64,000 bases of DNA, from contig BOKM01000001.1 of assembly GCA_016860985.1 (NCBI GenBank), positions 719,462 through 783,461 of the forward strand, read 5' to 3'. Position numbers and translations under genes: made by a program. The notes under the pieces were generated by a model. That model was given only the letters and a program-made list of their open reading frames with translations, was not told the origin of the DNA and made no database searches. Origin of the DNA: Patescibacteria group bacterium (GTDB taxonomy: Bacteria > Patescibacteriota > Dojkabacteria > GCA-002793355). Below are positions 7,769-63,264 of this stretch, one piece after another (position 1 is the stretch's first letter; the number at the start of each line of letters is the position of its first letter).

Positions 7769-7796
7769 TTGCGATTGCGCGTAACTGTGCTATAAT
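7769..7796 (+). promoter_or_regulatory. sigma70-like promoter upstream of rpsF (TTGCGA -16- TGcTATAAT)
   Basis: -35-like TTGCGA at 7769-7774 and an extended -10 TATAAT at 7791-7796. The -10 ends 7 nt before the ATG at 7804, so the transcript is leaderless unless the true start is the downstream GTG at 7842. Confidence 0.4.
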
Positions 7797-7803
7797 TCCC
7801 ACT

Positions 7804-11544: not shown

Positions 11545-12807
11545 ATGGAACAGAAAACAACCACGAAAACATCGTTTTTTGATAAAAAAGTTTCAGTATC
11601 CAACATTATTGTACTTACGGGAATCTCCCTTTTGTTTGGCGTTGGTATTGGAGCCTCGAGTACACCACTAAAAAACTATGTAAACGATAAGATGGTAACA
11701 GTCGTTCCATCCGGTGATCTCAGCAAAAAGAGTTTTAGCCTGTACTGGGAAGTGTATAACAAGCTTCGTGATTATTACGTTGACCCTGCAAAACTAGAAA
11801 CGAATGAACTCTTTTATGGCAGCATTAAAGGTATGGTTGAATCTCTTAGCGATGCCCCAACAGCTTTTTACACCCCAGAAGAAACAGCTGAATATAAAAA
11901 GGCACAAAGCGGTTCCTATTCTGGAATCGGTGCAGAGCTCGACTTTGTGAATAATAGCGTAGTAGTGGTTGCGCCCTTTGATGGTTCTCCAGCCCAGAAA
12001 GCGGGTATCGAGGCGCAAGATGTGATTTCAAAAGTTGATGATAAGTCAACTGCAAACAAAACAATAACTCAGGTTGTCTCTGAAATTAGAGGTCAAGCAG
12101 GTACAAAGGTTGCTCTGACTATTCTTCGGCCTCGTGAAAATTTCAAGGAACACGTAATTGAAATTATACGAGGGAATGTATCAGCACCAAGTATTGAAAT
12201 TAAAGAGGTAAAAGATAAGATTGCTGTTGTCAAAATAAGTCGATTTACCGAGAGCACAATGTCTGAGTGGGTAAGCAAATGGAATGTTGTATCAGACAAT
12301 ATTGCAACACAATACAAGAATGGAAGCGTGACGCATTTAGTGCTCGATCTTAGAAATAATCCCGGAGGCTTCTTTGATGCTGCCGTCGTGCTAGCTGGAG
12401 ATTTTCTTCCAAAAGGCTCAATCGTTGCCTACCAACGAGAAAGAGCAGGGGCAGATAAAGTATTCCCAACCGCCACCGAGCCACGCCTCGCAGACATCCC
12501 TGTCACAATTCTTGTAAATGGAAGCAGTGCATCTGCTTCAGAGATTTTTACTGGTGCTATGCAATACTATAAACGAGCCAAAGTGATTGGCGAACAAACG
12601 TATGGTAAGGGAACAGCTCAAGTAGTTCTGCCTGTTAGTGACGGTGCTTCGCTCCATGTCACAATAAGCAAGTGGTTGCTACCAGATAAAGAATGGTTAA
12701 ACCCAGAAAACACTATTGAACCAGACACAATCGTGAAGCTCGACTACGATCTACGCGCAAAAGGTATAGATAACCAGATGGAAGAAGCTCTTAAGCTCGC
12801 AAAATAG
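11545..12807 (+). CDS. S41 family C-terminal processing (tail-specific) peptidase with PDZ domain
   Basis: N-terminal TM helix, a PDZ-like segment, and the catalytic Ser/Lys region ...NGSSASASEIFTGAMQ...IGEQTYGKGTAQ. Confidence 0.8.
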   Translation: MEQKTTTKTSFFDKKVSVSNIIVLTGISLLFGVGIGASSTPLKNYVNDKMVTVVPSGDLSKKSFSLYWEVYNKLRDYYVDPAKLETNELFYGSIKGMVESLSDAPTAFYTPEETAEYKKAQSGSYSGIGAELDFVNNSVVVVAPFDGSPAQKAGIEAQDVISKVDDKSTANKTITQVVSEIRGQAGTKVALTILRPRENFKEHVIEIIRGNVSAPSIEIKEVKDKIAVVKISRFTESTMSEWVSKWNVVSDNIATQYKNGSVTHLVLDLRNNPGGFFDAAVVLAGDFLPKGSIVAYQRERAGADKVFPTATEPRLADIPVTILVNGSSASASEIFTGAMQYYKRAKVIGEQTYGKGTAQVVLPVSDGASLHVTISKWLLPDKEWLNPENTIEPDTIVKLDYDLRAKGIDNQMEEALKLAK

Positions 12808-12901
12808 CATTCAATCTTCTGTTAAAAAACGAGGGTTCCTTGCAATGGTATAATGTGTGCAATTACTATTTCTGTAATGAGATAATTTTGAAGGAACGCA
12901 T

Positions 12902-13432
12902 ATGGCAAAGGTTGTATTACTCGCGGATGTTCCGCAAATTGGCAAAAAAGGTATGATTGTAGATGTAAAAGAGGGCTATGCCTCAAACTTTCTATTTCCG
13001 AAAAAACTTGCTCGATTATCAGTAGCTGCAGACGAAAAGAAAATGTTGCAAATACAAGAGAACGCCCAATCAGCAGCAAAAAATAAGCAACGAATGATTA
13101 CAAAACTTATTTCCTACGCTTCGTCACAACTAATTAAGAAACCCATTAAAGTTTCTGTTAAAACGGCAGTTGGTGGAAGAGTATTCGGAAGCATTGACCC
13201 ACAGCAAGTGCTCGATGGATTATTTGAAGAAATGCCACAGTTAAAGGCACTAGATAGAAGCGAATTTCAGATTAAGATTCCACAACGCGTAGAATATGCC
13301 GGAAAATATGTATTCGAAATGCTTGTAAACGTTGATGGAGCTGAGCATAAAGATATGACAGTGGTTCCTTTGTATGTAGATATCGTTCCTCTAACCGAGG
13401 CACGCCAACATCACGGAGCAGGGAGGAAATAG
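12902..13432 (+). CDS. rplI: 50S ribosomal protein L9
   Basis: MAKVVLLADVPQIGKKGMIVDVKEGYASNFLFPKKLA is the canonical L9 N-domain. Confidence 0.85.
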   Translation: MAKVVLLADVPQIGKKGMIVDVKEGYASNFLFPKKLARLSVAADEKKMLQIQENAQSAAKNKQRMITKLISYASSQLIKKPIKVSVKTAVGGRVFGSIDPQQVLDGLFEEMPQLKALDRSEFQIKIPQRVEYAGKYVFEMLVNVDGAEHKDMTVVPLYVDIVPLTEARQHHGAGRK

Positions 13433-13568
13433 GTTCTTCTTTTTACGCAAACGTCAGTGTTCAAACGCTACACTTGGATAGAACTTCTTGAAAATTTCAC
13501 AATGGTCATGTTACCATGTGTGCACATGTACTTAGAAACCGCAGCTAGATAAGTTTACATACGTACAA

Positions 13569-14840
13569 ATGGAGTCAAAAGAAAAGCAACCAGTTGCGCC
13601 GACCACGGCGCAAAAAGAAACAGTAACCCCTAAAGTTGAAACCCCAGTAGCAGCGAAACCAGTTAAGAAAAAACGCCGAGGTGGCGCCATTTTGTTTGTA
13701 CTTTTTCTAATCTGTGGCTTTGGTACTTTATTCACGATTTTTGGTGTTTATGTCGCACGCTCTGTTGTTCCTGAAATTCAAAATTGGTTAGTGAGCCATA
13801 ACTTTGTGGCTACACCTAATACGAATAATGGCCAAGACAAATCTCCATTTGTTCCTCAGAATAATGATTCAATTGGAAAAACTGGTGATGCCCTTACAAT
13901 CCCGCAGGTAGTAAAGAAAGCTTCACCTAGTGTCGTGAGTATCGCAATTGCAGGTGAGCAAAATCCCGTTCCTGGAACAGAAGGGGAGTTCGACAAAATT
14001 GGTACCGGCTTTATCGTTGATGCAAAGGGAATTGTGGTAACAAATCAACATGTAGTTCGAGATTTAAAGGCAGAATATCAAGTAATTACACAAGATAATA
14101 AATCGTATAAGGCAAAAACAATCGTACGCGACGAAGTCAACGATATTGCAATTATTGTGGTAGATGCAAACGACCTTCCTGCTTTGCCAATTGGTAACTC
14201 CGCTTCAATTGAAGTAGGGGAGACCGTTATTGCCATAGGCACCCCACTTGGTGAGTATCCCGGAAGTGTAACCGTTGGCGTTATTAGTGGAGTAGGGCGA
14301 TCAGTCAGAACAGGGGACGGGTTTTGGGAAGCAGCGAAAGAGTACGAAAACGTATTACAGACAGACGCTGCAGTAAACCCAGGTAATTCTGGTGGTCCGT
14401 TATTGAACTTGTTTGGAGAAGTTGTTGGGGTAAACTTTGCGACCACAAGTGGCGCAGATAATATCTCATTTGCTTTACCGATTGATATCGTTGCACAACG
14501 AGTAAGTGAGTATAAACAATATGGAAAATTCAGAACACCGTACCTTGGAGTAAATTACCGAATGGTATTGGCACAAGAGGCAGAGTTCTACAATGTCGAG
14601 CCTGGTGCTTTGGTCAGAACTGTTGCAAAAGACTCCCCAGCAGAGAAAGCTGGCTTACGGGTTGGAGATATTATCACCAAAATAAACGGTAAAATGGTGA
14701 CAACAAGTCTTGCAGCAACACTCTCAAGAAATAATGTTGGCGACGAGATTAGTATTACGATAGTAAGAACGAGCATAACTGGTAACTCTGAAACCGTCAC
14801 GCTTAAGGCAACACTTTCAGAAAGACCAGCGTCAGAGTAG
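13569..14840 (+). CDS. HtrA/DegP-family serine protease with PDZ domain, membrane anchored
   Basis: N-terminal TM helix; trypsin-fold motifs TNQHVV (His), DIAII (Asp) and GNSGGPLLN (Ser); C-terminal PDZ. Confidence 0.85.
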   Translation: MESKEKQPVAPTTAQKETVTPKVETPVAAKPVKKKRRGGAILFVLFLICGFGTLFTIFGVYVARSVVPEIQNWLVSHNFVATPNTNNGQDKSPFVPQNNDSIGKTGDALTIPQVVKKASPSVVSIAIAGEQNPVPGTEGEFDKIGTGFIVDAKGIVVTNQHVVRDLKAEYQVITQDNKSYKAKTIVRDEVNDIAIIVVDANDLPALPIGNSASIEVGETVIAIGTPLGEYPGSVTVGVISGVGRSVRTGDGFWEAAKEYENVLQTDAAVNPGNSGGPLLNLFGEVVGVNFATTSGADNISFALPIDIVAQRVSEYKQYGKFRTPYLGVNYRMVLAQEAEFYNVEPGALVRTVAKDSPAEKAGLRVGDIITKINGKMVTTSLAATLSRNNVGDEISITIVRTSITGNSETVTLKATLSERPASE

Positions 14841-50753: not shown

Positions 50754-51251
50754 GGTAGAGGGGTGTGGATAAGTATAGACCTATAGTGTACATATCCCAT
50801 AGTAATCAGTCTGGCTATTTGTATCTTTTATACAAATATATGGAGGAGTGGCTATTCCTTCGATGTTCTTTCAGAAATATAAGGAAATTCCAAAAGAAAA
50901 GAGTGATAATTTTTCATATTCTACTCTAAATGTTGTGCCTTACTTCATATCGGTGCATGCAGTGCTAAAGTGCCAAAATTGTAAGCGCTTTTAGATTGAG
51001 TATAATCTCCCTTATACGCAGTCGAAACCTGTCAAGGTGGGAGTAGTGCCCTATTTACGGTTGTTACAAACAAAAAACTTATTTCAAAATATTTTCGCAG
51101 TAATTCTCTATTATGTTTATTAAATTTGTAATTTTTTCTGAATTTCGACGGAAAGTCGCCTTTTCTTCGGTTCTCCCTCTCGCGGCCGGCTGTTTATCTT
51201 TTGACTCCCCTGCCTCACACTTTGGCTGAATCTGCGCTATACTGTGAAGGA

Positions 51252-52382
51252 ATGAGAAAAATATCCATACAACAGCTGATGGAAGGCGATAAAACGCCCA
51301 AACTTGAGCGACAAAACGAGTACCTGTTATCTCTTTATAACGACGATTACAGCGACGAAACCGTTTATAATTACAATAGGGATCTATCTTTCTTTGCAGA
51401 ATATCTTTTACTTTCTAATACATCTTTTGAAAATATCTCAAAGTTAACGATTACGTATTACAAAGGATGGCTTAAGGAGAGAAATCATATTCACCAGAAG
51501 GTTCACGAACAAGAAATGGCAAAACAAGATGGTGATGGTAAGAAAAAGCCCCAGAATACCGTTGAAACGCGTAAAAACGCCTCAAAATCAAACGATGTAG
51601 CTTCAGTTGATCAAAAGGACGTTAAAAAACTGCAAAAAGGAGGCTTTGTGAAGAATAACAACCCAGAACAGCTTGATGCACTTTCTATTAATAGAATTCT
51701 AGTTGCTCTTAGAAATTATCTTCGATTTTTAGTCGAGTATGATTATCCAGCTCCAATTGCACCCGACGCAGTCACCTTGGTTCGACTTGCAAAAAAGAAA
51801 CCTCAGGTTCCAAGCCTAGATGAAGTAGTCGCTTTGGTAGAAGCTCCAACACATTACGAGGCTGTTTCTATCATTGCCCTGAGAAACAGAGCAGCGCTTG
51901 AACTTTTACTTGCTACGGGTATGCGTATATCAGAAGTAGTGAGTATAAACAGAGATCAAATAAACGGCGAGGGAAAACTTTTGGTTAGGGGTAAAGGGCG
52001 CAAAGATAGGTTTGTGTATCTAACGCCACGAGCAGTGGGGCACGTTCAGGAATACCTGAAAAATAGAGTAGACTCCTACCCTGCTCTTTTTTTACCAACG
52101 AGTGGAAGGCGCTTAAAGGGCAATGATCCCCGAATTTCAACCAATTATCTGCAAATGAAAATCGCCTATTATCGACGGATGCTTGAGATCGTTGTTCCAA
52201 TTAGCGCGCATACAATTCGTCATGCATACGCAACGTATTTGGTCGAAAATGGCGCCAATCCTGCAGCAATTCAGATCTTGCTTGGGCACGAAAGCCTTCA
52301 AACAACGACAAAGTATGTACATGCAAGCGATAAATATGCAGAGGAAACACACAAAGAGTTTCATCCAGCAATGGATGAGTAG
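51252..52382 (+). CDS. tyrosine site-specific recombinase, XerC/XerD-like, with lysine-rich insertion in the N-terminal domain
   Basis: GMRISEVVSINRDQI...VRGKGRKDRFVYL...HTIRHAYATYLVENGANPAAIQILLGHESLQTTTKYVH gives the R..HxxR..Y catalytic signature. Start MRKISIQQ at 51252 follows GAAGGA. Confidence 0.8.
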   Translation: MRKISIQQLMEGDKTPKLERQNEYLLSLYNDDYSDETVYNYNRDLSFFAEYLLLSNTSFENISKLTITYYKGWLKERNHIHQKVHEQEMAKQDGDGKKKPQNTVETRKNASKSNDVASVDQKDVKKLQKGGFVKNNNPEQLDALSINRILVALRNYLRFLVEYDYPAPIAPDAVTLVRLAKKKPQVPSLDEVVALVEAPTHYEAVSIIALRNRAALELLLATGMRISEVVSINRDQINGEGKLLVRGKGRKDRFVYLTPRAVGHVQEYLKNRVDSYPALFLPTSGRRLKGNDPRISTNYLQMKIAYYRRMLEIVVPISAHTIRHAYATYLVENGANPAAIQILLGHESLQTTTKYVHASDKYAEETHKEFHPAMDE

Positions 52383-52430: not shown

Positions 52431-53435
52431 TTAGTTGCGACTTACGGGCGTAGGAACGTATTCTCCTAAATACCCAAGGGTTATCTTTATCTTTTCTGCG
52501 TTCTTAATTCTTTCGACATAACCGAATGTCGTATTGCTTTCGTATTCGTTTCTGTGAGGTGTAATGTAGGGGGTAATACCTTTTTCAAGGTAAAGCTCAG
52601 TTAAACTATACTTTGGTTCCTCCGATGGAACTGTCCGATCTGGAATGGGAGTAAACGTTCCTTTAAAGTTCAATTGTTCGGGCACAAAAACAATGAGTTC
52701 TTGAAACCCTGTTGACCACAATGAAGTATCGACATCTTCTGGTGCGTCGTATTCAGCTGGGAAACTTGGTTCTTCCTGTTCGGAATATATCTCAACAACC
52801 ATTTTGCCATATGGATTGCTTGTTTTCTCAGTAGTCGTTTTGAGTTTGTAATTTGGACTGCCTGTAAATTGAATAAATACTTCTTCGTCTTTTAAATCTC
52901 GCCCGTGGTACACATAGACCGTTCTCATGTTTTTGGCTGGAAAAATAACTTCGAGTTCTTGGGCTTTATTGCCTTTTGTAACTGTCCATTTGGAGCGGAG
53001 TTCTTCTTGTGCTACGTTTGAATATCTACCTTCTGGTGTGGTTACGGTAAGATAGAGGTTTCGTGCAGCAACTGAAATTCCACTAAGTAAAGCAATAACT
53101 ACTGCACCTTGGAGAAGTTTTACCCCGAGTTGACGGTAACCAACGGTAGCTCCAAGAAGTGGGAGTTCGATTAGCTTTGGCACATTAAAATCTTTGACCA
53201 GATCTTGTACCTTTCCTAACGTTTCGAGAATAGTTTTTGCCTCTGCAAAATTGATTGTACTTGAGGCCGATTTTTCAGTTTTCTCCGTGATATGTGCGAG
53301 AATTTCTTCTCGTAAACCAGTGTAAGTCGCCTCTGGAAGATACACTTTGAAAAGGTCAAAATCTTCTAGGTATTTAGAGAATAGACGCGCAGCATCTTTC
53401 TCGATTTTGGGGCTTTGGAAAATGTTTTTTTCCAT
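52431..53435 (-). CDS. DUF1700-like N-terminal domain / DUF4097-like beta-rich C-terminal domain membrane protein (PadR operon partner)
   Basis: N-terminus LPEATYTGLREEILAHITEK...ILETLGKVQDLVKDF has a DUF1700-like pattern, followed by a TM helix and a beta-rich C-terminus. Begins 3 nt after the padR stop. Confidence 0.45.
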   Translation of the reverse strand: MEKNIFQSPKIEKDAARLFSKYLEDFDLFKVYLPEATYTGLREEILAHITEKTEKSASSTINFAEAKTILETLGKVQDLVKDFNVPKLIELPLLGATVGYRQLGVKLLQGAVVIALLSGISVAARNLYLTVTTPEGRYSNVAQEELRSKWTVTKGNKAQELEVIFPAKNMRTVYVYHGRDLKDEEVFIQFTGSPNYKLKTTTEKTSNPYGKMVVEIYSEQEEPSFPAEYDAPEDVDTSLWSTGFQELIVFVPEQLNFKGTFTPIPDRTVPSEEPKYSLTELYLEKGITPYITPHRNEYESNTTFGYVERIKNAEKIKITLGYLGEYVPTPVSRN

Positions 53436-53437
53436 TT

Positions 53438-53767
53438 TTATGTATATTTATGTGAGATTATTGTATTTACAATGGCAACGTATTCTTTCCATTGTTTTAT
53501 GCTTTCTGTAAGCATTTGTGTTCCCTTTTCTGTAATTTCATAGTATTTTCGTGGCCTTCCCTGTTCTGATTCTTCCCACGTTGCAACCAAGTAGCCATCA
53601 GTTCGCAGCCGGATTAGGATTGGATATAACGTACCCTCTGTGATAATCATTCCGAGTACTTTGAGTTGCTCGACAAGATCATAACCATATTTACGCTCCT
53701 TTTGAACAAGGGCCAAGATGCAGAGCTCTAGTGTCCCCTTTTTTAATTGTGTATCTAATTCGGCCAT
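53438..53767 (-). CDS. PadR family transcriptional regulator
   Basis: KGTLELCILALVQKERKYGYDLVEQL...EGTLYPILIRLRTDGYLVATWEE...PRKYYEITEKG is a canonical PadR wHTH. Confidence 0.85.
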   Translation of the reverse strand: MAELDTQLKKGTLELCILALVQKERKYGYDLVEQLKVLGMIITEGTLYPILIRLRTDGYLVATWEESEQGRPRKYYEITEKGTQMLTESIKQWKEYVAIVNTIISHKYT

Positions 53768-53793
53768 ACCTTATATTTTGTATTACAAGGTAT

Positions 53794-53822
53794 ATTGTAC
53801 TGCACTATCCTCTCGATGTCAA
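53794..53822 (-). promoter_or_regulatory. sigma70 consensus promoter TTGACA -17- TACAAT driving the padR operon
   Basis: On the minus strand, TTGACA (53817-53822) and TACAAT (53794-53799) are 17 nt apart, about 27 nt upstream of the padR ATG. Confidence 0.55.
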
Positions 53823-53953
53823 ATCAATTGACGATAATGCACAAAATAGTAAGGTTATTTATCTGTTTATAAAGATTCATGATTCAAGAGAGTACCGAGA
53901 AACAAACTGAATACTCTACTCTCTCGAACTGCGTGCCGATAACGATGCTCCAA

Positions 53954-55003
53954 TTAGAAAAGGTCATTGAAGAGGTAGTCCCCTTTTTGGCAGATTTGTG
54001 TTTTAAACAATGGAATGCTGACCATTTCGGGCTCACTCTCTCGTATTGAGGTAACTACCGATTCCCAAGTCGATTCTGCATTAAAAACTACAGGAATTTG
54101 ATATTTTGATTGAAGTTCTGCAAGTTGTTCGTCCGTTTGTGCGACCATAATTCTAACTGAATCCGAACCTTTCATTATTTCTGAATTGTAGTTCGTCGCT
54201 GTCATTATGACCTGAATGGGAGTTAACCATAAGGGCAGTCTACCGTTTGCCTCAATAATGCTAGCAATAATTCGTTCTGCCCCACCGAGGGTAAAGTCTA
54301 CAAGTATGCTCGCTTTGTTGCCAATCTCAACGTTAAATAATTCTAGCGCAGAAAGTTCAATTATTTTTCCGTTCGGAAGGGAAATGTTGAAGTCGAGTGC
54401 AAGCACAGCCTCCTCTTCAGAAGACAAGTTAATTTCGAATTTCTCTCCCCAGGCTTTTTCTAACTCTTCCCACGAAATAAGGGAATTGTCTTTTACATGA
54501 CATTTAACTGAGAACTTAACATTCCAATCGTTTTCGAAGCTACGGATACACTTCATCAACCCAATTACGTCGCTAAGCGCCTGATCTTTGTTTATTGTGA
54601 AAGAGTGAACATCAGTAACCTGAAATGCCGTCTGGCGTGTAAACGGTGTAAGTCTTGATTTTTCTTCTCCTCTAAACAGTATTCCTTGTTCTACAAATGT
54701 AAGTGGGAATTGTTCATTCGGTATGTCTTTGTCTTTGAGCGTCTTAAAGTAATAATGGTGAAATGTGTGTCTCATTGAACCCTCTGGGGATATTGAAATT
54801 GCTTCTTTCGAATGAGTAAGGTTGTCTTGGATTAAGGGGCTGTCTACGTAAATGGGATTATTAAAGTATTTGAATACTGCGCCAATACAGTATCTCTTTA
54901 TCAAATCAACGGTTGTTTTACCAAAAGGAGTAAATTTTAATGAAAGAAAATCGTCGACCGCATAGGGCTCTGCAAGAGTATTAAGAATATTTAGACTATT
55001 CAT
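53954..55003 (-). CDS. truncated threonyl-tRNA synthetase paralog (class II catalytic core plus partial anticodon-binding domain; zinc-site Cys lost)
   Basis: It aligns by eye with this window's own ThrS. PLTFVEQGILFRGEEKSRLTPFTRQTAFQVTDVHSFTINKDQA corresponds to [42 protein letters not shown] (motif 2). LPLWLTPIQVIMTA corresponds to FPVWLHPEQVVIIPI. The ThrS MTCPHH zinc-ligand segment reads MRHTFHH here. There is no N-terminal editing or TGS region, and the protein is 349 aa. Confidence 0.6.
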   Translation of the reverse strand: MNSLNILNTLAEPYAVDDFLSLKFTPFGKTTVDLIKRYCIGAVFKYFNNPIYVDSPLIQDNLTHSKEAISISPEGSMRHTFHHYYFKTLKDKDIPNEQFPLTFVEQGILFRGEEKSRLTPFTRQTAFQVTDVHSFTINKDQALSDVIGLMKCIRSFENDWNVKFSVKCHVKDNSLISWEELEKAWGEKFEINLSSEEEAVLALDFNISLPNGKIIELSALELFNVEIGNKASILVDFTLGGAERIIASIIEANGRLPLWLTPIQVIMTATNYNSEIMKGSDSVRIMVAQTDEQLAELQSKYQIPVVFNAESTWESVVTSIRESEPEMVSIPLFKTQICQKGDYLFNDLF

Positions 55004-56181
55004 TGTTTTATAATTTCTTTAATTAAATTTACACAAGACTCAATTTGTTCCTTGGTATTGTAATAATGTGGAGAAATTCTTAGGATGCTTTCATCACCTA
55101 TCTCCCGCGCAGCTAAAACAATCCTGTAATTATGTAATTTTGCAACGATCTCTGAAGGTTTTTTCCCTTCGATTTTGAAAGAGACGATTGATGTTCTCTT
55201 CGCAAGATCATTGACTCCTAATATTGATACTCCCGGTATATCGTTAAGTAGTTGAATTGTTAACGCAATTAATTCTTTGTTCTTCTTTGCAACTTCGCTA
55301 ATACCAACTCGATTCAACAATTCAATCGCCTTGAGTAGGCCCACAACTCCCGTATAATTTCTAAAACCGTTTTCAAATTTATATGGTCCAGGCTTTACAG
55401 TATAATCATCATTTGAAAAATTTAGCTTAACTTGAACCCCATCTGATATTGCCTCTAAAATTCTAACATCCATACCGTAGTAATTAATTAGTTTTTGTGT
55501 TTCTTTGCTAATATACAGAATCCCAATGCCTGGAGGAGCACAGAGCCATTTGTATCCAGAAAAAACCATATAATCGCAGCCAAGAGCTTTCACGTTAACA
55601 GGCAAGCAACCAACTGTTTGTGCAGCGTCGACGAGCACGGTGTAGCTATATTTTTTTGCAAGAAGTGCTATGGATTCTACGTCGAGGACTGTTCCAAGGT
55701 TGTAAAGTGCGTGCGCAATCGCAACTATACCCCCTGGTTTTTCTTTCATGAGCAGCTCAATCTTTTGAAGGTCTGGGTTGCCAAATTCGTCAGAGCCGGT
55801 GATTTGTAAATCAAGATTTTTCTCTTTTGCAATTTTTAGCCAAGGCAAGAAGTTAGCCACATGTTCCTTTGATGATTCTCTCAGGATAATTCTGTCATTT
55901 TCTTTCCAAGAATAACCTTCAGCGATGATATTGATTCCATGTGTAATACTTTGGGTAAAAATGACTTCCTCAGGGGAACACCCAATTAGTCCTGCAACTG
56001 CATTACGCGTTTCTTCAAAATACGCTTCCTTTTTTACAAAAGGTGAGTCGGGACCATTATGTGAGTATTCTTGCAAGTAAGCATGAGTATCATTTAATAT
56101 GCTTTCAGGAACCGGCCCGAATGCTGCGTTATTTAAATAGTTCGTCGTATTATTTATCGCAAAATCATCTGCTTCTATCAT
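55000..56181 (-). CDS. class V (fold type I) PLP-dependent aminotransferase/desulfurase-family enzyme lacking the desulfurase catalytic Cys
   Basis: The PLP-lysine region is FSGYKWLCAPPGIG. The C-terminal region is SufS/IscS-like (...ISPHYYNTKEQIESCVNLI), but the active-site loop reads AAREIGDES with no Cys. ATGA overlap with the downstream ThrRS-like gene. Confidence 0.65.
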   Translation of the reverse strand: MIEADDFAINNTTNYLNNAAFGPVPESILNDTHAYLQEYSHNGPDSPFVKKEAYFEETRNAVAGLIGCSPEEVIFTQSITHGINIIAEGYSWKENDRIILRESSKEHVANFLPWLKIAKEKNLDLQITGSDEFGNPDLQKIELLMKEKPGGIVAIAHALYNLGTVLDVESIALLAKKYSYTVLVDAAQTVGCLPVNVKALGCDYMVFSGYKWLCAPPGIGILYISKETQKLINYYGMDVRILEAISDGVQVKLNFSNDDYTVKPGPYKFENGFRNYTGVVGLLKAIELLNRVGISEVAKKNKELIALTIQLLNDIPGVSILGVNDLAKRTSIVSFKIEGKKPSEIVAKLHNYRIVLAAREIGDESILRISPHYYNTKEQIESCVNLIKEIIKQ

Positions 56182-56251
56182 TAACTAGTAAAAAAAGTTA
56201 GTATATTGCCTCGATTTCCGGTATTCTCTTCTCTTTTCATTTTGCTGTCAA

Positions 56252-56278
56252 GCCTAAGTAGTACGTTACTGCTTAGGC
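56252..56278. promoter_or_regulatory. 27-bp imperfect palindrome (candidate operator) in the divergent intergenic region
   Basis: GCCTAAGTAGTAC g TTACTGCTTAGGC: the two 13-nt arms match at 11 of 13 positions. It overlaps the predicted -35 region of the kinase promoter. Confidence 0.5.
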
Positions 56279-56293
56279 AATGCCGAATTAGAA

Positions 56294-56302
56294 TGTTATA
56301 AT
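56294..56302 (+). promoter_or_regulatory. extended -10 element TGtTATAAT for the kinase gene
   Basis: TGTTATAAT lies 26 nt upstream of the ATG at 56329. Confidence 0.4.
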
Positions 56303-56328
56303 ACGCGCATAATTCTACTCATACGTAC

Positions 56329-57246
56329 ATGACTACATTGGAGCCAGAAACAATTGAAAAAAATGAACTCGCAATAAAAAGGATTCAAGAAATTGTTGGT
56401 GCTGATTATGCTGTTAAGCCCCTGGATGGCGGCTTTTCTGGAGCCGGTAAGTTTACAGCAGAGAGCCCTAGTGGTTCGGAAAAGTTGTTCGTCAAATATA
56501 GTGAAGTAGATAACAGCCTGGCTCCACCGAGAAAATATGTTGATTGGCTAAATCAAGAAATTGATGTTATGGCGTCGATGGGTGAACAACCTTTCGTACC
56601 AAGTGTAATAAAGGCTTACAAGGGTGACGAATATAGCGTACTCGCAATTAATCAACTGGAGTGGCCCAATAAACAAATAACATGGACGATGGAAAATGTT
56701 CAAAAGGTTTTGAAGGTAGTTCGGCAACTAAAAGATGTCCGCACCTCAGACAAACCAGCAATACCTCCTCCAGATGCTGGTGAGCAAAATCCCTGGAAAG
56801 ATGTATTTGAACAAATTAAGTCATCGGATCCTTCCCCATATGCTTCAAGAGCTTGGTTAGAGCAAATTAGAACTCGAGTTTTGGCTCTTGACCCAACCGA
56901 GCTTCTTACTCCAAAAGATTTTGTTCACGGTGATTTAAGGAGCGATAATATTCGTCTTGGAGACGGGTTGCCTACCGTACTTGTTGACTGGACTTTTGCT
57001 GGAATGGGGAACCATGATTTAGATATCGCGTATTGGTTGCCCAGTGTGAAAATGGAGGGTGGACCAGAACCGTGGGAAATCATGCCAAATAGACCTGACC
57101 TTGCCATGATGGTTGTAGGTTACTTCTTTGCACGAGCGATGTTACCGGAAATACCTGATGCTCCAATGGTACGAACGATTCAAAGAAAACAACTAATAGC
57201 GGCACTCCCTTGGCTCGCTCACGAGTTGAATGTTCCGCTGCAATAA
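56329..57246 (+). CDS. APH-like phosphotransferase (aminoglycoside / homoserine-kinase-II / AmgK fold) kinase
   Basis: Catalytic loop VHGDLRSDNIRL, and VDWTFAGMGNHDLDIAYWL, corresponding to the DWE..G.G....D motif. Confidence 0.75.
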   Translation: MTTLEPETIEKNELAIKRIQEIVGADYAVKPLDGGFSGAGKFTAESPSGSEKLFVKYSEVDNSLAPPRKYVDWLNQEIDVMASMGEQPFVPSVIKAYKGDEYSVLAINQLEWPNKQITWTMENVQKVLKVVRQLKDVRTSDKPAIPPPDAGEQNPWKDVFEQIKSSDPSPYASRAWLEQIRTRVLALDPTELLTPKDFVHGDLRSDNIRLGDGLPTVLVDWTFAGMGNHDLDIAYWLPSVKMEGGPEPWEIMPNRPDLAMMVVGYFFARAMLPEIPDAPMVRTIQRKQLIAALPWLAHELNVPLQ

Positions 57247-57248
57247 CC

Positions 57249-58244
57249 CTAGTGTGTAAGAATTGTTATTTTCGCAGAATTTTCAATCGCTTTTACTTCG
57301 CACGTGCCTCCGATTGGAATTGTTGCATTCGGGGTTGTATGCCCAAAATCAACATTTGCTACAATCGGAATGTTACTCAGCTCTGGGTGAGATAGGAAAA
57401 TCTGCTCAAGCAATTTAGGTGTTATTCCTGAAATATTATGGAATCGACCAATTACAATTGCCTTGATTTCTGATGAGTAGGATCTATTCATAAACGATTC
57501 AAAAAGTCCTGCGAATGACTGCGCATGTATATCACTAGTCGCTTCGAGAAAAAGAATCGCATTGTGTAATGGTCTTTCGTACTCAGTTCCGGCGTTTAAT
57601 ACATAAGTAGAAGTATTTCCACCATATATCGTTCCGGTTGCTTTCCCCTCACGAATAACCCAATACCCCTCATTTCTGATATAAGAACGATTCTCCTGGT
57701 CTTTGAACCAAGTGTCGTCACTCCATTCTTCCGAGGGGAGTAACTCATATGGAAGTTTCTCGCTGCAACATTTAATAAAATATTCTAGAGAGTAATTAAA
57801 CCCATATTTCATTCCCCAGCTTGTGAAGTGTGGTCCTAAATAGGTAATTAGTCCGGTCTTTGCGTAGATACCGTTAAGGATTGAAGTAATATCAGAATAG
57901 CCACAAATGACCTTTGGATTTGCCGCAATCAAATCGTAATCTAAATATTTTAATAGTTGATTTGAAGTATAGCCTCCCAAAACGGTAAGTATGCCATCAA
58001 CGGTTGAGTCCGAAAAAGCAGCATGTATGTCATCTACGCGAGATTTTATTGAGGAGGAGTCAAAAGAATCCCTTTCATATACATGCTCCCCAAAAGATAT
58101 TGTAAAGCCAGTATCTTCGAGTCGTTGCTGTGCCAATGGAATGATATCTTGCTTGATAAATGCGAGCGAGCGTGCAGGGGCAATGATTCTCAAGTGGGCA
58201 AGCGGATTCAATCGCTTAGCAATCAAAATTTTTCCCAAAAACAA
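57249..58244 (-). CDS. S66 family peptidase (LD-carboxypeptidase LdcA / microcin C immunity MccF-like)
   Basis: LRIIAPARS...TVLGGYTSNQLL...VICGYSDITSI (Ser nucleophile in GYSD)...VDFGHTTPN (His). Confidence 0.8.
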   Translation of the reverse strand: MFLGKILIAKRLNPLAHLRIIAPARSLAFIKQDIIPLAQQRLEDTGFTISFGEHVYERDSFDSSSIKSRVDDIHAAFSDSTVDGILTVLGGYTSNQLLKYLDYDLIAANPKVICGYSDITSILNGIYAKTGLITYLGPHFTSWGMKYGFNYSLEYFIKCCSEKLPYELLPSEEWSDDTWFKDQENRSYIRNEGYWVIREGKATGTIYGGNTSTYVLNAGTEYERPLHNAILFLEATSDIHAQSFAGLFESFMNRSYSSEIKAIVIGRFHNISGITPKLLEQIFLSHPELSNIPIVANVDFGHTTPNATIPIGGTCEVKAIENSAKITILTH

Positions 58245-58318
58245 ATAATCTCAGTACAAGAAATCATGCACTATTATACTATGCCTTATTGTCGCTACTC
58301 AAGAAGCATTTAATATCA

Positions 58319-58327
58319 TGCTATAAT
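58319..58327 (+). promoter_or_regulatory. extended -10 element TGcTATAAT for the AlaRS-like/methyltransferase gene
   Basis: TGCTATAAT lies 27 nt upstream of the ATG at 58354. Confidence 0.4.
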
Positions 58328-58353
58328 TACGTTCAAAGTTAGGCAACAACTAC

Positions 58354-60276
58354 ATGCAAACAAAAGAAATAAATAGCTATGGGTTTCAAAATTTTGATAT
58401 TGATGCACCAAACGTAGCTAGTGAATCAAGACACTATGTAACCGAATTGCTTGACAAGTTTAGAAACTATTTCACAAAACTCGGTTACTTTGACCAGCCA
58501 CCTGCTCCAATAAGTTCGGGGATCGATCCTACCGTGCGTCTTATTGGCTCTGGTATTTCGACATTAAAAAGATTTATACCTCCCTTTGGGAATGATAGCC
58601 TTCCTTATCCAGGTGCATTTATTCTTCAACGTGCCGTCAGGACTCGAAATCGTTCAATACTTATGGACGATGAGAAAGTACCAAACTGGGGGTCATTGTT
58701 CACTAATATTGTTTGGATTACTTCTCCAAAACGGTTAAAAGAAGCAACTGAAGAAACATTTCATTTCTTTCTTGATGAATTAGGGATTAAAAAAGAAAAT
58801 TTGATGATTCGAGTCAAGAGTAGCGACTACCAGAATCTATGGATGTATGCGGAAAAGTTTGTAGAGAATATCGAAATCGATTCAAAACCGGATAAATATT
58901 ACACTCATCAACTCGGCACGGATATTCTTTATGCAAATAGTTATAATCTAGCGTTGAAGGACCCTGACCCAAGTTCAAAAAATTTCCAAGATATCGGCAA
59001 TATTATTTTACACAGAGACAAGAATGGCAAAGAGGTGCTAGTAGAAATCGGTTTTGGGGATAGTACAATTTTGCGAGCAATGCGAGGAGGGCATGTTATT
59101 GACTGGCGCTTTGTTCCGGGTTTGATGACAGTTGATCCGAACATACGTTTGAAGATGGCAGATGAATTAATAACTTCTGTTGAATTAGCACGTGAAGGCC
59201 TAGTACCCTCTTCAAAGGATAATAGGACAAAGCTATTTAAAGCATACTTGCACGCGCTTCTTCGTCACCAAGCGATTACTGGGATTTCAATGGCGAAACT
59301 TGAGGATATCATAAACGAATATGAGCGTCTTGAGTTCCCTAATAGCGTGCTAAATGCAGGAAGTCTTGTTACAGGTTATTTGAACATGTTAATGAAGAAG
59401 GTTCAGATGAAAAAATTGAGTGAACTCTCTCCAGATGAACTAAAATTGAAGGAAATTTTTGATAGATATCCTGTTCTTGGAAATTATCAAATAGAAGTAA
59501 AACAAGCACATATGAAACTTTCGGGTGAAAAAACAACCGAGGCACTAATACCTGTAATTGAGAGATTTAATACGTCAATAATCGTTGAAAAATATAAAGA
59601 TGCTATTGAGAATGTAGGAATATGGGAATCTGAAAGTATCGTTGCAAACGCCTATTTAAACAAAGATGATAGGATTCTAGAGCTTGGATGCGGTACAGGG
59701 AGATTCACGTTTGGTCTATACAAACTTGGGTTCCATCATATTACGGGGATAGATTTAGCAAAGGAGTTGATTATGGTCGCGAAAGATTATGCAAAAAAGC
59801 ATAACCTCCGCGTCGCATTTTCTTACCAAGACGCTCGTAAGCTTCAGTTCCCTAATGAATCATTTGACGGTATCGTTTTTCCCTTTAATGGCCTAATGAC
59901 CATTCCACTTGAAGAAAACAGAAAGCAGGTACTTTCCGAAATAGCGCGAGTGCTTAGACCTTCTGGTTATTTCATATTTACTACTCACGACAGATTAATC
60001 AATAAAAATTATTCAGAATTTTGGAAAAAGCAAAGAAGCAACTTCCGGAGTGGAAAACGGGAACTGGGGCAATACGAATATGGTGATTTACCATTAAAAG
60101 GTGCGGAAGATGACGCTTTTATTCATATCCCTAGTATGAGCGAGGTCCGAAGTTTATTGAAATCGTATGGCTTCAAAATTGTCTATACTCGAATGCGAAG
60201 CAAAATTGCGACCGAATCAGAAAATACTATGAAATTCTCCGCGGACTGCCGTTTTTGGGTTGTACAGAAATTGTAA
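58354..60276 (+). CDS. fusion protein: N-terminal alanyl-tRNA-synthetase-catalytic-core-like domain + C-terminal class I SAM-dependent methyltransferase
   Basis: The N-terminus (LLDKFRNYFTKLGYFDQPPAPISSGIDPTVRLIGSGISTLKRFI...ILQRAVRTRN...EETFHFFLDELGIKKENLMIRVKSSD) parallels E. coli AlaRS (FLDFFHSKGHQVV...DPTLLFTNAGMNQFKDVF...SQRCVRAGG...AIQFAWELLT...ERLWVTVYESD). The C-terminus has MTase motif I ILELGCGTGRFTFGL, motif II-III (FDGIVFPFNGLMTI) and LRPSGYFIFT. Confidence 0.5.
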   Translation: MQTKEINSYGFQNFDIDAPNVASESRHYVTELLDKFRNYFTKLGYFDQPPAPISSGIDPTVRLIGSGISTLKRFIPPFGNDSLPYPGAFILQRAVRTRNRSILMDDEKVPNWGSLFTNIVWITSPKRLKEATEETFHFFLDELGIKKENLMIRVKSSDYQNLWMYAEKFVENIEIDSKPDKYYTHQLGTDILYANSYNLALKDPDPSSKNFQDIGNIILHRDKNGKEVLVEIGFGDSTILRAMRGGHVIDWRFVPGLMTVDPNIRLKMADELITSVELAREGLVPSSKDNRTKLFKAYLHALLRHQAITGISMAKLEDIINEYERLEFPNSVLNAGSLVTGYLNMLMKKVQMKKLSELSPDELKLKEIFDRYPVLGNYQIEVKQAHMKLSGEKTTEALIPVIERFNTSIIVEKYKDAIENVGIWESESIVANAYLNKDDRILELGCGTGRFTFGLYKLGFHHITGIDLAKELIMVAKDYAKKHNLRVAFSYQDARKLQFPNESFDGIVFPFNGLMTIPLEENRKQVLSEIARVLRPSGYFIFTTHDRLINKNYSEFWKKQRSNFRSGKRELGQYEYGDLPLKGAEDDAFIHIPSMSEVRSLLKSYGFKIVYTRMRSKIATESENTMKFSADCRFWVVQKL

Positions 60277-60339: not shown

Positions 60340-63264
60340 CTAACTCGCCAACCCCGTCACTTCGTCTCCTTCTGCAATTCGGAATACTTTTACTCCATAG
60401 GTTTGTCTGTTTGCAAGTACCGGAATGCTTTGGAAGTTGGTTTTGATTACTTGCCCCTGTTTGGAGATAAGTATTACCTCTTTGTCTTCGGTTCTTTCGG
60501 CATCAGGGAATATTCGGGCTACCCGCAGGTTACCTGTTTTGCCTCCAATCTTTGCAGCAAAGATGCCTGTGCCACCTCTGTGTTGTTGCTTAAACTCAGA
60601 CAATGCGGTGCATTTACCAAAACCTTGTGCAGACACAGTAAGGAGTAAGTCGGTCTCGCTAGAGACAACGTCGAAGGAGATAACTTCGTCATCTTTCTTC
60701 ATGCTAATGCCTTTTACGCCCATTGTGTTTCGGCCACTTTCTTTCACTTCTTTTTCGGCAAAGCGGATAGATTTTCCTTTTTGTGTGACAAGAATAAGCT
60801 CGTCTTTTGCTGTAGTAAGTTGGGCCTGTACCAATCGGTCCCCTTCTTTAAGAATTATGGATACGAGACCGTTCTTTCGGATGTTCTCATATTCATCGAG
60901 TGCGGTTTTCTTTACGATTCCGTTGGCAGTTGCCATTGCAATATATTTGCCATCAGCTCGGCTTTGTAACGAGAGCAATGAGCTGACCACTGTATTTGGA
61001 GTGATTTGCAATAAGTTCACAATTGGAAGACCCTTTGCAATTTTCTTTGCTTCTGGAATCTCATAGCCACGTAGTTTAAAGACTTTACCATCGGACATAA
61101 ATACAAGGAGCCAGTCGTGAGTATTACACAATAACGCATGGTTAACGTAATCATTTTCTTTGAGTTTTGCACCGATGCTTCCTTTTCCGCCTCTGTGCTG
61201 TAAGCGGTATTCTTCTGGAGATACTCGCTTGATATAGCCGGACTTGCTGATGGTTACAAAGGTTTGTTCGTTTGCTACCAAATCTTCTTCTTGTGGTTCG
61301 TCGACGTCACCTTTGTAGACTTTTGTACGTCGCTTATCTGCGTATTTCTCTTTGACTTCGAGTAGGTCGGTTTTTACTAACTCAAGAATTTTAATCTCTT
61401 CTGCGAGGTAAGACTCGTGATGTTTGATATTCTCAAGAAGACCGTTGTATTCATCTTGAATCTTTTGTCGTTCGAGTGCTGCCAACTTTCTAAGTTGCAT
61501 ATCGAGAATCGCTTGTGCCTGAACATCGGTTAGGTCAAAGCGTTCCATAAGCCCAATTTTTGCTTCGTCTGCATTCTTGGCTGCACGAATGAGTTTGATT
61601 ACTTCTTCAATAAAGTCGAGCGCTTTGAGTAAACCTTCTAAAATGTGAGCGTCGTATTTGTTTCTTGCGAGTTCGAATTCCAGTTTACGGATAATAACGG
61701 TCATTCGATGATCAAGATACAATTCCAAGATTCGCTTGAGGTTGAGTGTACGAGGCTGATCATCAACCAACGCAATCATGTTTGAGTTAAAGTTCATTTG
61801 CAGTGGCGTGTATTTGAACAGCTTCTGCATAATGATCTGTGGTGAGAAGCCAGACTTTACTTCGATGTAAATACGAATTTCGTTCTTCGAGGATTCGTCG
61901 CGGAGATCTTTTACGCCTTCAATCTTTCCGTCGTGGATTAGCTGTGCAATTTGCTCCATAAGTACAGCTTTGTTTACTTGGAATGGAATCTCAGTAATAA
62001 TAATTGCTTGTTTTCCACTGTTTGTTTCTTCGACAGTCATGACTCCGCGCATCTTTACCCGACCATTGCCGGTTTCGTACATGCTCAGGATATCTTTCTG
62101 GTTATAAATAACGCCACCGGTTGGGAAGTCAGGACCTTTAACGAATTGCATTAACTCTTGCGTGGTAACCTGCGAAATGAACTTTGGGTACAACGAAAGT
62201 ATCGGTGCTCCGTCAAATCCCTCTGCAAGTTTGGCTAAACTCTCTGTGTTTAACCCTAATTCGGCTGCGTTTTCAACTAATGTTCCTTCTTTGATAAAGA
62301 GTTCGAGCGCTGCGACTTTTTCTTTGAACAATGGGTCATTTGGCGCAATGTAATTGTCCCAGTACGTAAATGGCTCTGAGCTTAACAATTGAGGTACTCG
62401 TGTGTTTTGTTCTCTAAAGCTTCGAAGTAAATTGTATGCAGATTTTCCACCCCAGGTATTCCCTTGGTCGATCATGGAGATAAGCGCATCGATAAGTTCT
62501 CCGAGGTTATGTGGTGGAATTTTTGTCGCCATACCTACGGCAATACCACTCGTTCCGTTTGCAAGTAGGTTTGGAAACGCTGCAGGTAAAGCTACAGGTT
62601 CGTTTCGGGTTCCGTCGTAGTTGACACGGTATAGTACAGTTCCTTTGTCGATATCTTTTATTAATTCAACAGCTATTTTTGAATATTTTGCTTCGGTATA
62701 ACGCATGCTTGCTGCAACATCTCCGTCGATTGAACCGAAGTTCCCTTGGCCATGAACCAACGGATATCGCATGGTAAAAGGCTGTACCATGTTTACGAGA
62801 GTTTGATAGATTGCTTGGTCACCGTGTGGATGATAGTTACCCATTGCTTCACCAACGATTTTTGCGGATTTACGGGTTGCTCCAGTTGGCCAAAGGGTTA
62901 AATCTTTCATTGCAACGGTTACACGTCGCTGCGAGGGTTTAACGCCGTCTTTTACATCTGGAATGGCTCGATCAACAATTACGCTCATGGCGTAGTCGAT
63001 AAAGTCTTTCTTTAATTCGTCGGTGATTGATACAGATACTGTTTCTCCCGCTTTGAAGCCTGCACCGGTCGTGAGCATGTCACTAATGCCTTCGTTTGAT
63101 TCTTCGCCAATTTCAAGGTCACCAGTGGCAGTTTTATAGTCGTCTGACTCGAGCGAGTCTTGAGGTGCACTTTCTAAAGAGGTCGGCTCAGCAGCAGATT
63201 CTTTTATCTGTTCATCAATGAGGTTCTTTACGTCTTCTGGAATTGGTGTTTTGTCTTTTGCCAT
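60340..63264 (-). CDS. gyrA: DNA gyrase subunit A with acidic N-terminal extension
   Basis: DYAMSVIVDRAIPDVKDGVKPSQRRV, active-site AASMRYTEAK, and C-terminal beta-pinwheel repeats. A roughly 70-aa acidic low-complexity N-terminus precedes the conserved start. Confidence 0.9.
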   Translation of the reverse strand: MAKDKTPIPEDVKNLIDEQIKESAAEPTSLESAPQDSLESDDYKTATGDLEIGEESNEGISDMLTTGAGFKAGETVSVSITDELKKDFIDYAMSVIVDRAIPDVKDGVKPSQRRVTVAMKDLTLWPTGATRKSAKIVGEAMGNYHPHGDQAIYQTLVNMVQPFTMRYPLVHGQGNFGSIDGDVAASMRYTEAKYSKIAVELIKDIDKGTVLYRVNYDGTRNEPVALPAAFPNLLANGTSGIAVGMATKIPPHNLGELIDALISMIDQGNTWGGKSAYNLLRSFREQNTRVPQLLSSEPFTYWDNYIAPNDPLFKEKVAALELFIKEGTLVENAAELGLNTESLAKLAEGFDGAPILSLYPKFISQVTTQELMQFVKGPDFPTGGVIYNQKDILSMYETGNGRVKMRGVMTVEETNSGKQAIIITEIPFQVNKAVLMEQIAQLIHDGKIEGVKDLRDESSKNEIRIYIEVKSGFSPQIIMQKLFKYTPLQMNFNSNMIALVDDQPRTLNLKRILELYLDHRMTVIIRKLEFELARNKYDAHILEGLLKALDFIEEVIKLIRAAKNADEAKIGLMERFDLTDVQAQAILDMQLRKLAALERQKIQDEYNGLLENIKHHESYLAEEIKILELVKTDLLEVKEKYADKRRTKVYKGDVDEPQEEDLVANEQTFVTISKSGYIKRVSPEEYRLQHRGGKGSIGAKLKENDYVNHALLCNTHDWLLVFMSDGKVFKLRGYEIPEAKKIAKGLPIVNLLQITPNTVVSSLLSLQSRADGKYIAMATANGIVKKTALDEYENIRKNGLVSIILKEGDRLVQAQLTTAKDELILVTQKGKSIRFAEKEVKESGRNTMGVKGISMKKDDEVISFDVVSSETDLLLTVSAQGFGKCTALSEFKQQHRGGTGIFAAKIGGKTGNLRVARIFPDAERTEDKEVILISKQGQVIKTNFQSIPVLANRQTYGVKVFRIAEGDEVTGLAS

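Follow-up and report, generated by a model that had tools for sequence, protein, structure and literature searches.

A Patescibacteria protein joining an alanyl-tRNA synthetase-like catalytic core to a SAM-dependent methyltransferase, and the gene neighbourhoods of its relatives

Background

Alanyl-tRNA synthetase (AlaRS) is usually seen as the aminoacyl-tRNA synthetase (aaRS) with the most conserved prototype architecture. The only characterised paralog of its catalytic core that we found in literature searches is AcmF (2024), which is encoded in the ascamycin cluster of Streptomyces sp. 80H647/JCM9888 (Zheng et al., ACS Catal 2024, as reviewed in PMC12945691). Here we report on a 64,000-nucleotide stretch of the genome of a Patescibacteria group bacterium (Dojkabacteria; assembly GCA_016860985.1, contig BOKM01000001.1, positions 719,462 to 783,461 of the forward strand; the whole stretch is referred to as the window and its first letter is position 1), in which one gene encodes an AlaRS-like (ARL) catalytic core fused to a class I S-adenosylmethionine (SAM)-dependent methyltransferase (MTase), and on the family to which the ARL module belongs.

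At 370 amino acids (aa; PMC4257720), AcmF is a shortened AlaRS-like protein with the aminoacylation and tRNA-recognition domains only, and it lacks most of the residues for ATP binding and alanine activation as well as the Asp-plus-Asn architecture for G3:U70 (PMC12945691). Its substitutions include Asp to Glu (E232, which is essential) and Asn to Gln (Q219); it is unable to activate alanine and N-alanylates 5'-O-sulfamoyl-2-chloroadenosine from Ala-tRNA(Ala), with modelled contacts from R93, W100, F104, E216, Q219 and E232 (PMC12945691).

Two further systems build or degrade related bonds. AgnA, a truncated asparaginyl-tRNA synthetase (AsnRS), is the proposed maker of the acyl-phosphoramidate bond of agrocin 84 (PMC4392301, PMC8323819), and MccF cleaves processed microcin C, as well as related aminoacyl- or peptidyl-adenylate mimics, at the aminoacyl-N bond (PMC8323819). 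The agn cluster of plasmid pAgK84 holds agnA, the SAM MTase gene agnB1, agnB2 for a resistant leucyl-tRNA synthetase (LeuRS), the MTase gene agnC3 and the "MccF-like" agnC5. According to the literature, immunity to microcin C is known to rest on three chemistries, those of S66 peptidases (MccF), GNAT acetyltransferases (MccE2) and HIT-domain proteins (MccH). The microcin C phosphoramidate is decorated by MccD, which has the class I MTase fold, and the MccB enzymes that cytidylate have an MTase domain at the C-terminus, which is a precedent for a fusion between a bond-forming enzyme and an MTase. Secondary metabolism is considered sparse in Patescibacteria (the Candidate Phyla Radiation, CPR).

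Results

The fusion gene and its two domains

The gene is one unbroken reading frame of 640 codons plus stop, and its parts are as follows.

58354..60276, + strand: fusion open reading frame (ORF), 640 aa, AlaRS-like core, linker and class I SAM MTase in a single open frame
58426..59463, + strand: ARL module, residues ~25-370, class II catalytic core and a shortened helical domain of the tRNA-recognition type
59464..59628, + strand: interdomain linker, residues ~371-425, helical, at low confidence (pLDDT, the predicted local distance difference test, 40-60 in both models)
59629..60273, + strand: class I SAM-dependent MTase domain, residues ~426-640 (~215 aa), from Pfam matches
58319..58327, + strand: extended -10 element TGcTATAAT, ~25 nt ahead of the fusion ATG, by inspection of the sequence

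An identical protein is encoded on three further contigs, one of them an NCBI contig of 1.05 Mb, and an ortholog from another, unrelated sample (P0002; 627 aa, 59% identity) has the same two-domain layout. Therefore the fusion is no assembly or frameshift artefact, and the split into two genes that the initial annotation had named as a refutation is not seen. The fusion is real and it is rare, in keeping with the earlier view of it as an unusual architecture; most ARL relatives are standalone proteins.

That the C-terminus is a class I SAM MTase, as first read from the letters alone, is borne out by SAM motif I (LELGCGTG, residues 442-449) and by the Pfam family Methyltransf_25, which matches residues 441-538 with E=7.5e-22 and 78.3 bits against a cutoff of 27. 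The Methyltransf_25, 31 and 11 matches lie between E=1e-20 and 1e-22, and besides Methyltransf_25 four MTase families score above their own cutoffs. The closest relatives of this domain in the PDB are small-molecule MTases (1VE3, 2.5e-19). Conservation of the linker is limited to the window protein and P0002. The full-length AlphaFold2 model did not resolve the MTase domain or the interdomain geometry, because the alignment there was only two sequences deep.

The N-terminal module is homologous to the AlaRS aminoacylation core

Taken singly, the window protein falls below the thresholds of the AlaRS families: PF01411 (tRNA-synt_2c) gave E=0.03 and 13.3-15.5 bits against a cutoff of 30.3, TIGR00344 gave 13.8 bits against a cutoff of 457, and the best single-sequence PDB match of the N-terminal half, AlaRS 1RIQ, is suggestive only (E=0.04). 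The family places it more firmly. Some ARL relatives narrowly clear the PF01411 cutoff with 33-35 bits, and all five members of our first, small profile match that family; searched against the PDB, this five-sequence profile found AlaRS as its sole matches (2.2e-7). Alignment of a 118-sequence profile to AlaRS with hhalign gave a probability of 99.3% and E=1.2e-20 over 365 columns, with residues 25-404 of the window protein corresponding to residues 1-419 of Escherichia coli AlaRS. An AlphaFold2 model (pLDDT 89.4) has the AlaRS-type class II catalytic fold, and when it was searched with Foldseek the top 25 matches were all AlaRS catalytic fragments (E=4e-15). A match to the editing domain (tRNA_SAD) was not found in the window protein.

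The initial annotation had thus been right to assign this half to the aminoacylation core of AlaRS and not to the AlaX editing domain, and the structure prediction that it listed as a check points there too; an AlaRS-like segment is present, but the length of about 420 aa given for it is too long, as the segment ends near residue 370. Among the motif strings that had been read literally, F...F...G, DPT....G and QRAVR were found, while "EFAW" is absent and the homologous block ETFHFFLDELGIKKENLMIRV stands in its place. By profile and model together, the module consists of the aminoacylation domain and part of the helical tRNA-recognition domain. Relative to the canonical AlaRS fragment (E. coli 1-441/461, PDB 3HXU; 9JC7), ARL has lost about half of the helical tRNA-recognition domain, has an altered motif 2 loop and lacks the editing and C-Ala domains, and the window protein is below threshold for the Pfam and TIGR families; the motif 3 Arg and D235 of the canonical fragment are Thr and Glu in the window protein.

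The adenylate pocket is retained and the triphosphate site is not

Residues of E. coli AlaRS were mapped onto the window protein, and the residues at each position were counted over 118 ARL family members; the E. coli numbering is that of the mature protein, except for N303 and D400, where the initiator Met is residue 1. The key positions, with the E. coli residue first and the window residue second, are given below.

R69 (motif 2 Arg), R96: Arg in 110/118
F90 (stacks on adenine), F116: Phe in 113/118
H86, W112: aromatic in 112/118
E209, D213: Asp in 100/118
N212, N216: Asn in 110, Val in 5, Ala in 3, no Gln
V214, I218: Ile in 98/118
G239, G235: Gly in 107/118
D235 (ligand of the alpha-amino group), E231: Glu in 110, Gln in 7, Asp in 1 of 118
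R242 (motif 3 Arg, GxGxER), T238: Thr in 71, Val in 13, Asn in 9, Ala in 6, Ser in 6, Arg in 0/118

The motif 3 arginine binds the gamma-phosphate of ATP. Besides its loss, the motif 2 loop residues K73, H74 and D76 are not conserved in the ARL family; of the two G3:U70 readers, N303 corresponds to a variable position (S287 in the window protein) and the region of D400 is absent in most members. Judged by these residues, the adenylate pocket is kept where it holds adenosine and the aminoacyl group, and the residues that handle the triphosphate and read G3:U70 are lost. Adenylation of a substrate by the core, which the initial annotation had put forward, is therefore unlikely, and its suggested check of the motifs and the alanine pocket has a divided outcome, with the motif 2 Arg and the pocket residues retained, the motif 3 Arg missing and Glu in the position of D235.

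This pattern resembles that of AcmF, which we compare by its published description. Both are truncated AlaRS cores of ~350-370 aa that have lost the activation residues and the Asp/Asn readers of G3:U70; both have Glu for the Asp that binds the alpha-amino group (E232 in AcmF, E231 in the window protein), and they share the pocket Arg, the W-x3-F aromatic pair and the acid-x2-amide spacing. The likeness is an argument by analogy that ARL may work like AcmF, and not a demonstration of common membership. A third homolog search with the 118-sequence profile returned eight proteins, none of them named AcmF.

Size and spread of the ARL family

With an exhaustive HMMER search we collected 943 representatives at E<=1e-3, of which 330 reach E<=1e-30; by sequence similarity the ARL module defines a family of at least 330 sequence clusters. 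Among the matches listed, nearly all are standalone proteins with lengths of 303-410 aa (median 351). The family is concentrated in Patescibacteria, where ARL loci occur in many lineages; further hosts are metagenome-assembled genomes (MAGs) of Alpha- and Gammaproteobacteria, one MAG each of Methanosarcinales and Clostridium, a Calothrix plasmid and a Streptomyces. Database scans found no dedicated Pfam, NCBIfam or PADLOC family for ARL, a tblastn search with the module against plasmids and phages gave no match, and in literature searches we found no account of the family or its operon beyond AcmF.

Fusions to other domains recur within the family. MTase fusions are the window protein and P0002; a Parcubacteria locus (OLB19; L027, 5245-7323) encodes an ARL-S66 fusion in a clean ORF of 692 aa, P0130 has an HD phosphohydrolase C-terminal to ARL and P0074 is a GNAT-ARL fusion. 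As gene architectures, these confirm the predicted functional coupling of ARL with MTase, S66, HD and GNAT partners. In one further protein (P0094) a response-regulator receiver domain stands N-terminal to ARL.

ARL genes lie in a conserved operon with an MccF-like peptidase

Gene calling in 35 independent loci, within 3 kb of the ARL gene, revealed a stereotyped operon on one strand, with genes, in this order, for an HD/HAD hydrolase (~215 aa), a class I SAM MTase (~260 aa), ARL (~370 aa), an S66 peptidase (~330 aa) and an AsnRS-like core (~372 aa). An MccF-like S66 peptidase is present at 32/35 loci and the common operon MTase (A4-type) at 28/35; MTases of another lineage in two more loci (the fused domain of P0002, and an adjacent gene at the Streptomyces locus L006) raise the MTase count to 30/35. 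The AgnA-like truncated AsnRS core is found at 24 of the 35 loci and the HD/HAD hydrolase at 20/35, and HIT-domain neighbours were also seen. Because related loci have a separate MTase gene beside ARL, the window gene is a Rosetta-stone fusion of two operon partners. Searching with the window MTase by phmmer had found few neighbours, which made the MTase look like a rare accessory; this was overturned by the positional analysis and Pfam, by which an MTase of a different class I lineage proved to be a regular member of the operon. Among the cluster MTases the best match of the window domain is AgnB1 of pAgK84 (2e-12), followed by the Streptomyces MTase at L006 (4e-10).

The AsnRS-like partner, in which motifs 2 and 3 (GFGLGIER) are intact, lacks an anticodon domain. 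Its nearest relative is AsnRS (1X54, 1e-39), and it matches AgnA at 4e-59 with 32% identity over 94% of its length. In the agn cluster the same set of enzymes surrounds a bond-former derived from an aaRS; that cluster has no AlaRS-like gene, and the window in turn has neither an AgnA homolog nor a full-length resistant aaRS such as AgnB2. With microcin C the ARL systems share the fusion of a bond-former to a C-terminal MTase, a decorating enzyme of the class I MTase fold and linked S66, GNAT and HIT genes. The bond-former differs: in microcin C it is MccB, a ThiF/E1-type enzyme whose substrate is a ribosomal peptide, whereas that of the ARL systems is aaRS-derived.

Single loci depart from the common plan. 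One full-length locus has neither S66 nor MTase; this is the archaeal one (L036, 7989-11499, Methanosarcinales MAG), where ARL is directly followed by a GNAT gene (Acetyltransf_3, MccE/RimL-type), an unknown gene and a MoaA-like radical SAM gene. A Clostridium MAG (L038, 6892-11291) carries, one after the other, a radical SAM gene, the ARL gene, a gene for a complete 458-aa class IIa aaRS that includes an HGTP anticodon domain, and S66; this aaRS may be a dedicated donor-charging or a resistant synthetase, like AcmD or AgnB2. On plasmid pS05J of Bradyrhizobium elkanii (L041, 5907-9692), S66, AgnA-like, HAD and class I MTase genes form an operon without ARL that adjoins nodU on this symbiosis plasmid, and its AgnA-like protein is 51% identical to AgnA-like proteins of the CPR.

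The gene cluster in the window

The fusion gene of the window is surrounded by a different set of genes.

57249..58244, - strand: MccF-like S66 serine peptidase, divergent from the fusion gene (Pfam Peptidase_S66 and S66C)
56329..57246, + strand: APH-family small-molecule kinase (Pfam APH 1.1e-10), kept at the P0002 locus
56294..56302: extended -10 element TGtTATAAT of the APH kinase gene
55000..56181, - strand: class V aminotransferase/cysteine-desulfurase-like enzyme dependent on pyridoxal phosphate (PLP; Pfam Aminotran_5 5e-67), kept at the P0002 locus
53954..55003, - strand: core of a class IIa aaRS resembling threonyl-tRNA synthetase (ThrRS), 349 aa (Pfam tRNA-synt_2b 1.2e-5), kept at the P0002 locus
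53438..53767, - strand: PadR-family regulator (Pfam PadR 1e-21)
52431..53435, - strand: 334-aa protein, no Pfam or PADLOC match, co-oriented with the PadR and ThrRS-like genes
51201..52382, + strand: phage-type integrase flanking the cluster (Pfam Phage_integrase 6e-29)

The S66 peptidase is ~55% identical to the "MccF-like" BA_5613 of Bacillus anthracis (4E5S, 1e-97) and matches MccF at 4e-36, AgnC5 at 6e-33 and LdcA at 5e-19; its catalytic motifs GYSDIT, FLE and GHTTP (Ser/Glu/His) are present. By these similarities we assign it to the MccF branch and not to the LdcA branch.

The ThrRS-like core has intact motifs 2 (FRGEE) and 3 (GGAER), and its gene overlaps that of the PLP enzyme by 4 nt. 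At E<0.02 its only PDB matches are ThrRS (best 5e-7), and neither AgnC1 nor any other plasmid-cluster gene was found to be related to it. Its tail is short, resembles an anticodon domain and starts with PLWLTPIQVIM. The ThrRS-like, PLP enzyme and APH kinase genes are together common only to the window and the P0002 locus; the ThrRS-like/PLP pair and the kinase could make a modified building block of the Thr/Ser type. The PadR gene is a probable cluster regulator, and the place of the 334-aa protein, whose gene is absent at the P0002 locus, is uncertain. The extended -10 elements that the initial annotation had seen at both divergent promoters are there; that of the fusion gene was missed by a consensus promoter scan, because its -35 is poor.

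Neither an MccB-like gene nor an MccA-like precursor gene was found in the window, and it has no HD gene and no common-type MTase gene elsewhere. As this set differs from that of the common operon, the accessory enzymes have been swapped while ARL, MTase, S66 and an intact class II core have been kept. From AcmF the context differs as well, given that AcmF is accompanied by sulfamate-biosynthesis genes, AcmE (an alpha/beta-hydrolase) and AcmD (a full AlaRS), and the window by the fused MTase, the MccF-like S66 and other aaRS-like cores. The GC content of the cluster (52431-60276) is 0.390, compared with 0.415 for the rest of the window, and the cluster may have integrated as an island, with the ruvB-side genes on one side and gyrA on the other. 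PADLOC gave no match for ARL or S66, and the cluster is not a catalogued defence system; its mad2 and SspA/DndA matches were rejected as generic MTase and cysteine-desulfurase similarity.

Discussion

A proposed transferase derived from AlaRS

Homology, fold, residue pattern, MTase identity and gene linkage we regard as established. The general scheme that we favour, at an even chance of being correct, is that of a non-adenylating, AlaRS-derived transferase acting with a tailoring MTase on an aminoacyl-nucleotide, with S66 as the immunity function. ARL would no longer activate an amino acid with ATP, while its former aminoacyl-adenylate pocket would still take up a ligand that contains adenosine, together with a small aminoacyl group. 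The aminoacyl group (of the size of Ala, Gly or Ser) would most likely be taken from a charged tRNA, by analogy to AcmF, its alpha-amino group being held by E231, and be transferred onto the amine of a 5'-modified adenosine nucleoside or nucleotide of the sulfamate or phosphoramidate type, held by R96, W112, F116, D213 and N216. The product would be a stable, non-hydrolysable N-acyl aminoacyl-adenylate mimic. The fused MTase would methylate the acceptor or the product as a tailoring step, the S66 peptidase would cleave the amide bond of the aminoacyl-nucleotide for self-protection of the producer or for processing of the product, and either the acceptor or the donor would come from the ThrRS-like core, PLP enzyme and APH kinase. 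What the acceptor is, the site of methylation and the immunity role are what we infer, as is the dependence on tRNA, which we hold with lower confidence than the general scheme. In favour of the scheme we count the AlaRS homology and fold, the selective retention of pocket residues, the likeness to AcmF, the linkage in 35 loci and the fusions, the place of the S66 partner in the MccF branch, the GNAT and HIT neighbours, the AgnA homology of the AsnRS-like partner with the matches to AgnB1 and AgnC5, and the MccB precedent.

More tentatively, and with the chances leaning against it, the operons could represent a widespread and unrecognised pathway (ARL, MTase and MccF-like S66, often with AgnA-like and HD/HAD proteins) in Patescibacteria, scattered Proteobacteria, cyanobacterial plasmids, Streptomyces, Clostridia and archaea, which would make methylated aminoacyl-phosphoramidate or -sulfamate adenosines by a tRNA-dependent ARL. 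The window fusion would then unite the two central steps in one polypeptide, and the products, as adenylate mimics, would poison aaRSs. On this reading, an aaRS-derived, peptide-independent "mini microcin C/agrocin" chemistry would be a common weapon of ultra-small bacteria.

Several observations weigh against the scheme. The AcmF analogy is imperfect: AcmF has Q219 where ARL keeps Asn (N216), and its motif 2 loop is shorter, that of the window protein being ~9 residues longer. Residues 194-195 of the window protein (nt 58933-58938) are Ala-Asn, at positions that are Gly in 110/118 and Arg in 104/118 family members (P0002 has Ala-Arg there); if the role of the missing motif 3 Arg has passed to R195, the enzyme of the window would be further degenerate. 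The window MTase comes from a class I lineage other than that of the common operon MTase and is not orthologous to it. The S66 peptidase does not depend on ARL, being found without it on Bradyrhizobium plasmids, and the same S66 subfamily occurs without ARL in Firmicutes; conversely, the P0002 locus is without S66. There is no AgnA-like gene in the window and neither an exporter nor a resistant target aaRS among the genes at 52431-60276, and tRNA genes showed no consistent linkage to ARL loci.

Alternative explanations

The core might after all activate alanine or another carboxylate with ATP and pass it to a substrate that the MTase methylates. The retained motif 2 Arg, adenine-stacking Phe and equivalents of E209 and N212 fit such an activity, a family-conserved basic residue (K72 in 115/118, or R195) could in principle replace the lost Arg, and the aaRS paralogs AsnA, EpmA and AgnA do adenylate. 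We nevertheless consider it unlikely: no family member has the motif 3 Arg, the triphosphate loop of motif 2 is not conserved, Glu has replaced D235, and AcmF, with the same residue pattern, is inactive in activation. The window protein, moreover, has N195 and not R195, and a second, intact class II core able to adenylate is nearly always present at related loci (AgnA-like there, ThrRS-like in the window).

That the operon is a resistance cassette is, in our judgement, improbable. Here ARL would be a decoy that captures aminoacyl-adenylate-mimic antibiotics and hands them to S66, with MTase, HD and GNAT proteins inactivating them further. A pocket preserved without catalysis would suit a decoy, as would the very tight S66 linkage together with the ARL-S66 fusion; S66 also shows stronger conservation than ARL and is found by itself as a resistance-type gene, and the neighbouring GNAT and HIT proteins are resistance enzymes. 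Against this, most loci hold a catalytically intact AgnA-like synthetase, which is biosynthetic in agrocin 84, hydrolases normally need no stoichiometric binding partner, and AcmF shows that such cores are catalysts.

As a pseudoenzyme or regulator comparable to HisZ or Pol-gamma-B, the core would sense tRNA charge or a nucleotide and regulate the MTase or other partners. This we think quite unlikely, as E231, N216 and R96 are strongly conserved over at least 118 diverse sequences, which is more typical of a catalytic site, and the fusion partners are enzymes of one chemistry and not signalling modules.

A role in murein or peptide recycling, with S66 as an LD-carboxypeptidase that trims murein peptides and ARL adding alanine from tRNA to a peptidoglycan precursor, draws on the membership of S66 in the LdcA family and on the Ala-tRNA-dependent peptidoglycan additions known from other (Fem-type) enzyme families, but it was rejected as very improbable on the subfamily placement of S66, far nearer to the MccF type than to LdcA, and on a patchy distribution that takes in plasmids, an integrase-flanked island and an archaeon without murein, and the co-occurring AgnA-like, HD, HIT and MTase genes would have no role there.

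Significance

The AcmF-like degenerate AlaRS core is no Streptomyces curiosity, with at least 330 clusters and a near-invariant MccF-like partner. New here are the fusion with an MTase and a widely distributed context that mixes components of the agrocin and microcin C types, and it suggests that many bacteria with tiny genomes make or handle antibiotic-like aminoacyl-nucleotides. If the transferase scheme is true, it would open a new and easily testable route to aminoacyl-adenylate-mimic antibiotics, and orphan MccF-like peptidases such as B. anthracis BA_5613 and Listeria Lmo1638 would gain a physiological substrate. It would also provide compact enzymes, a natural transferase-MTase fusion among them, for the chemoenzymatic synthesis of aaRS inhibitors.

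Additional observations

At the Streptomyces sp. NPDC059349 locus (L006), an ORF of 49 aa (7787-7936) lies immediately upstream of the ARL-MTase-S66 genes, a 627-aa ThrRS (12105-13988) is encoded 3 kb downstream, and a GT2 gene and genes for a radical SAM enzyme and an MFS transporter lie upstream. These surroundings look like a larger biosynthetic gene cluster, and the ThrRS could be a resistance copy. MFS transporters are present at this locus and at L005.

On plasmids of Pantoea agglomerans, an AgnA-like region was found inside a gene annotated as "GNAT family N-acetyltransferase", which suggests a GNAT-AgnA-like fusion. Finally, the GyrA encoded beside the cluster in the window (60340-63264, - strand, 974 aa) has ~75 extra residues, acidic in character, at its N-terminus, ahead of the point where conserved GyrA sequence starts.

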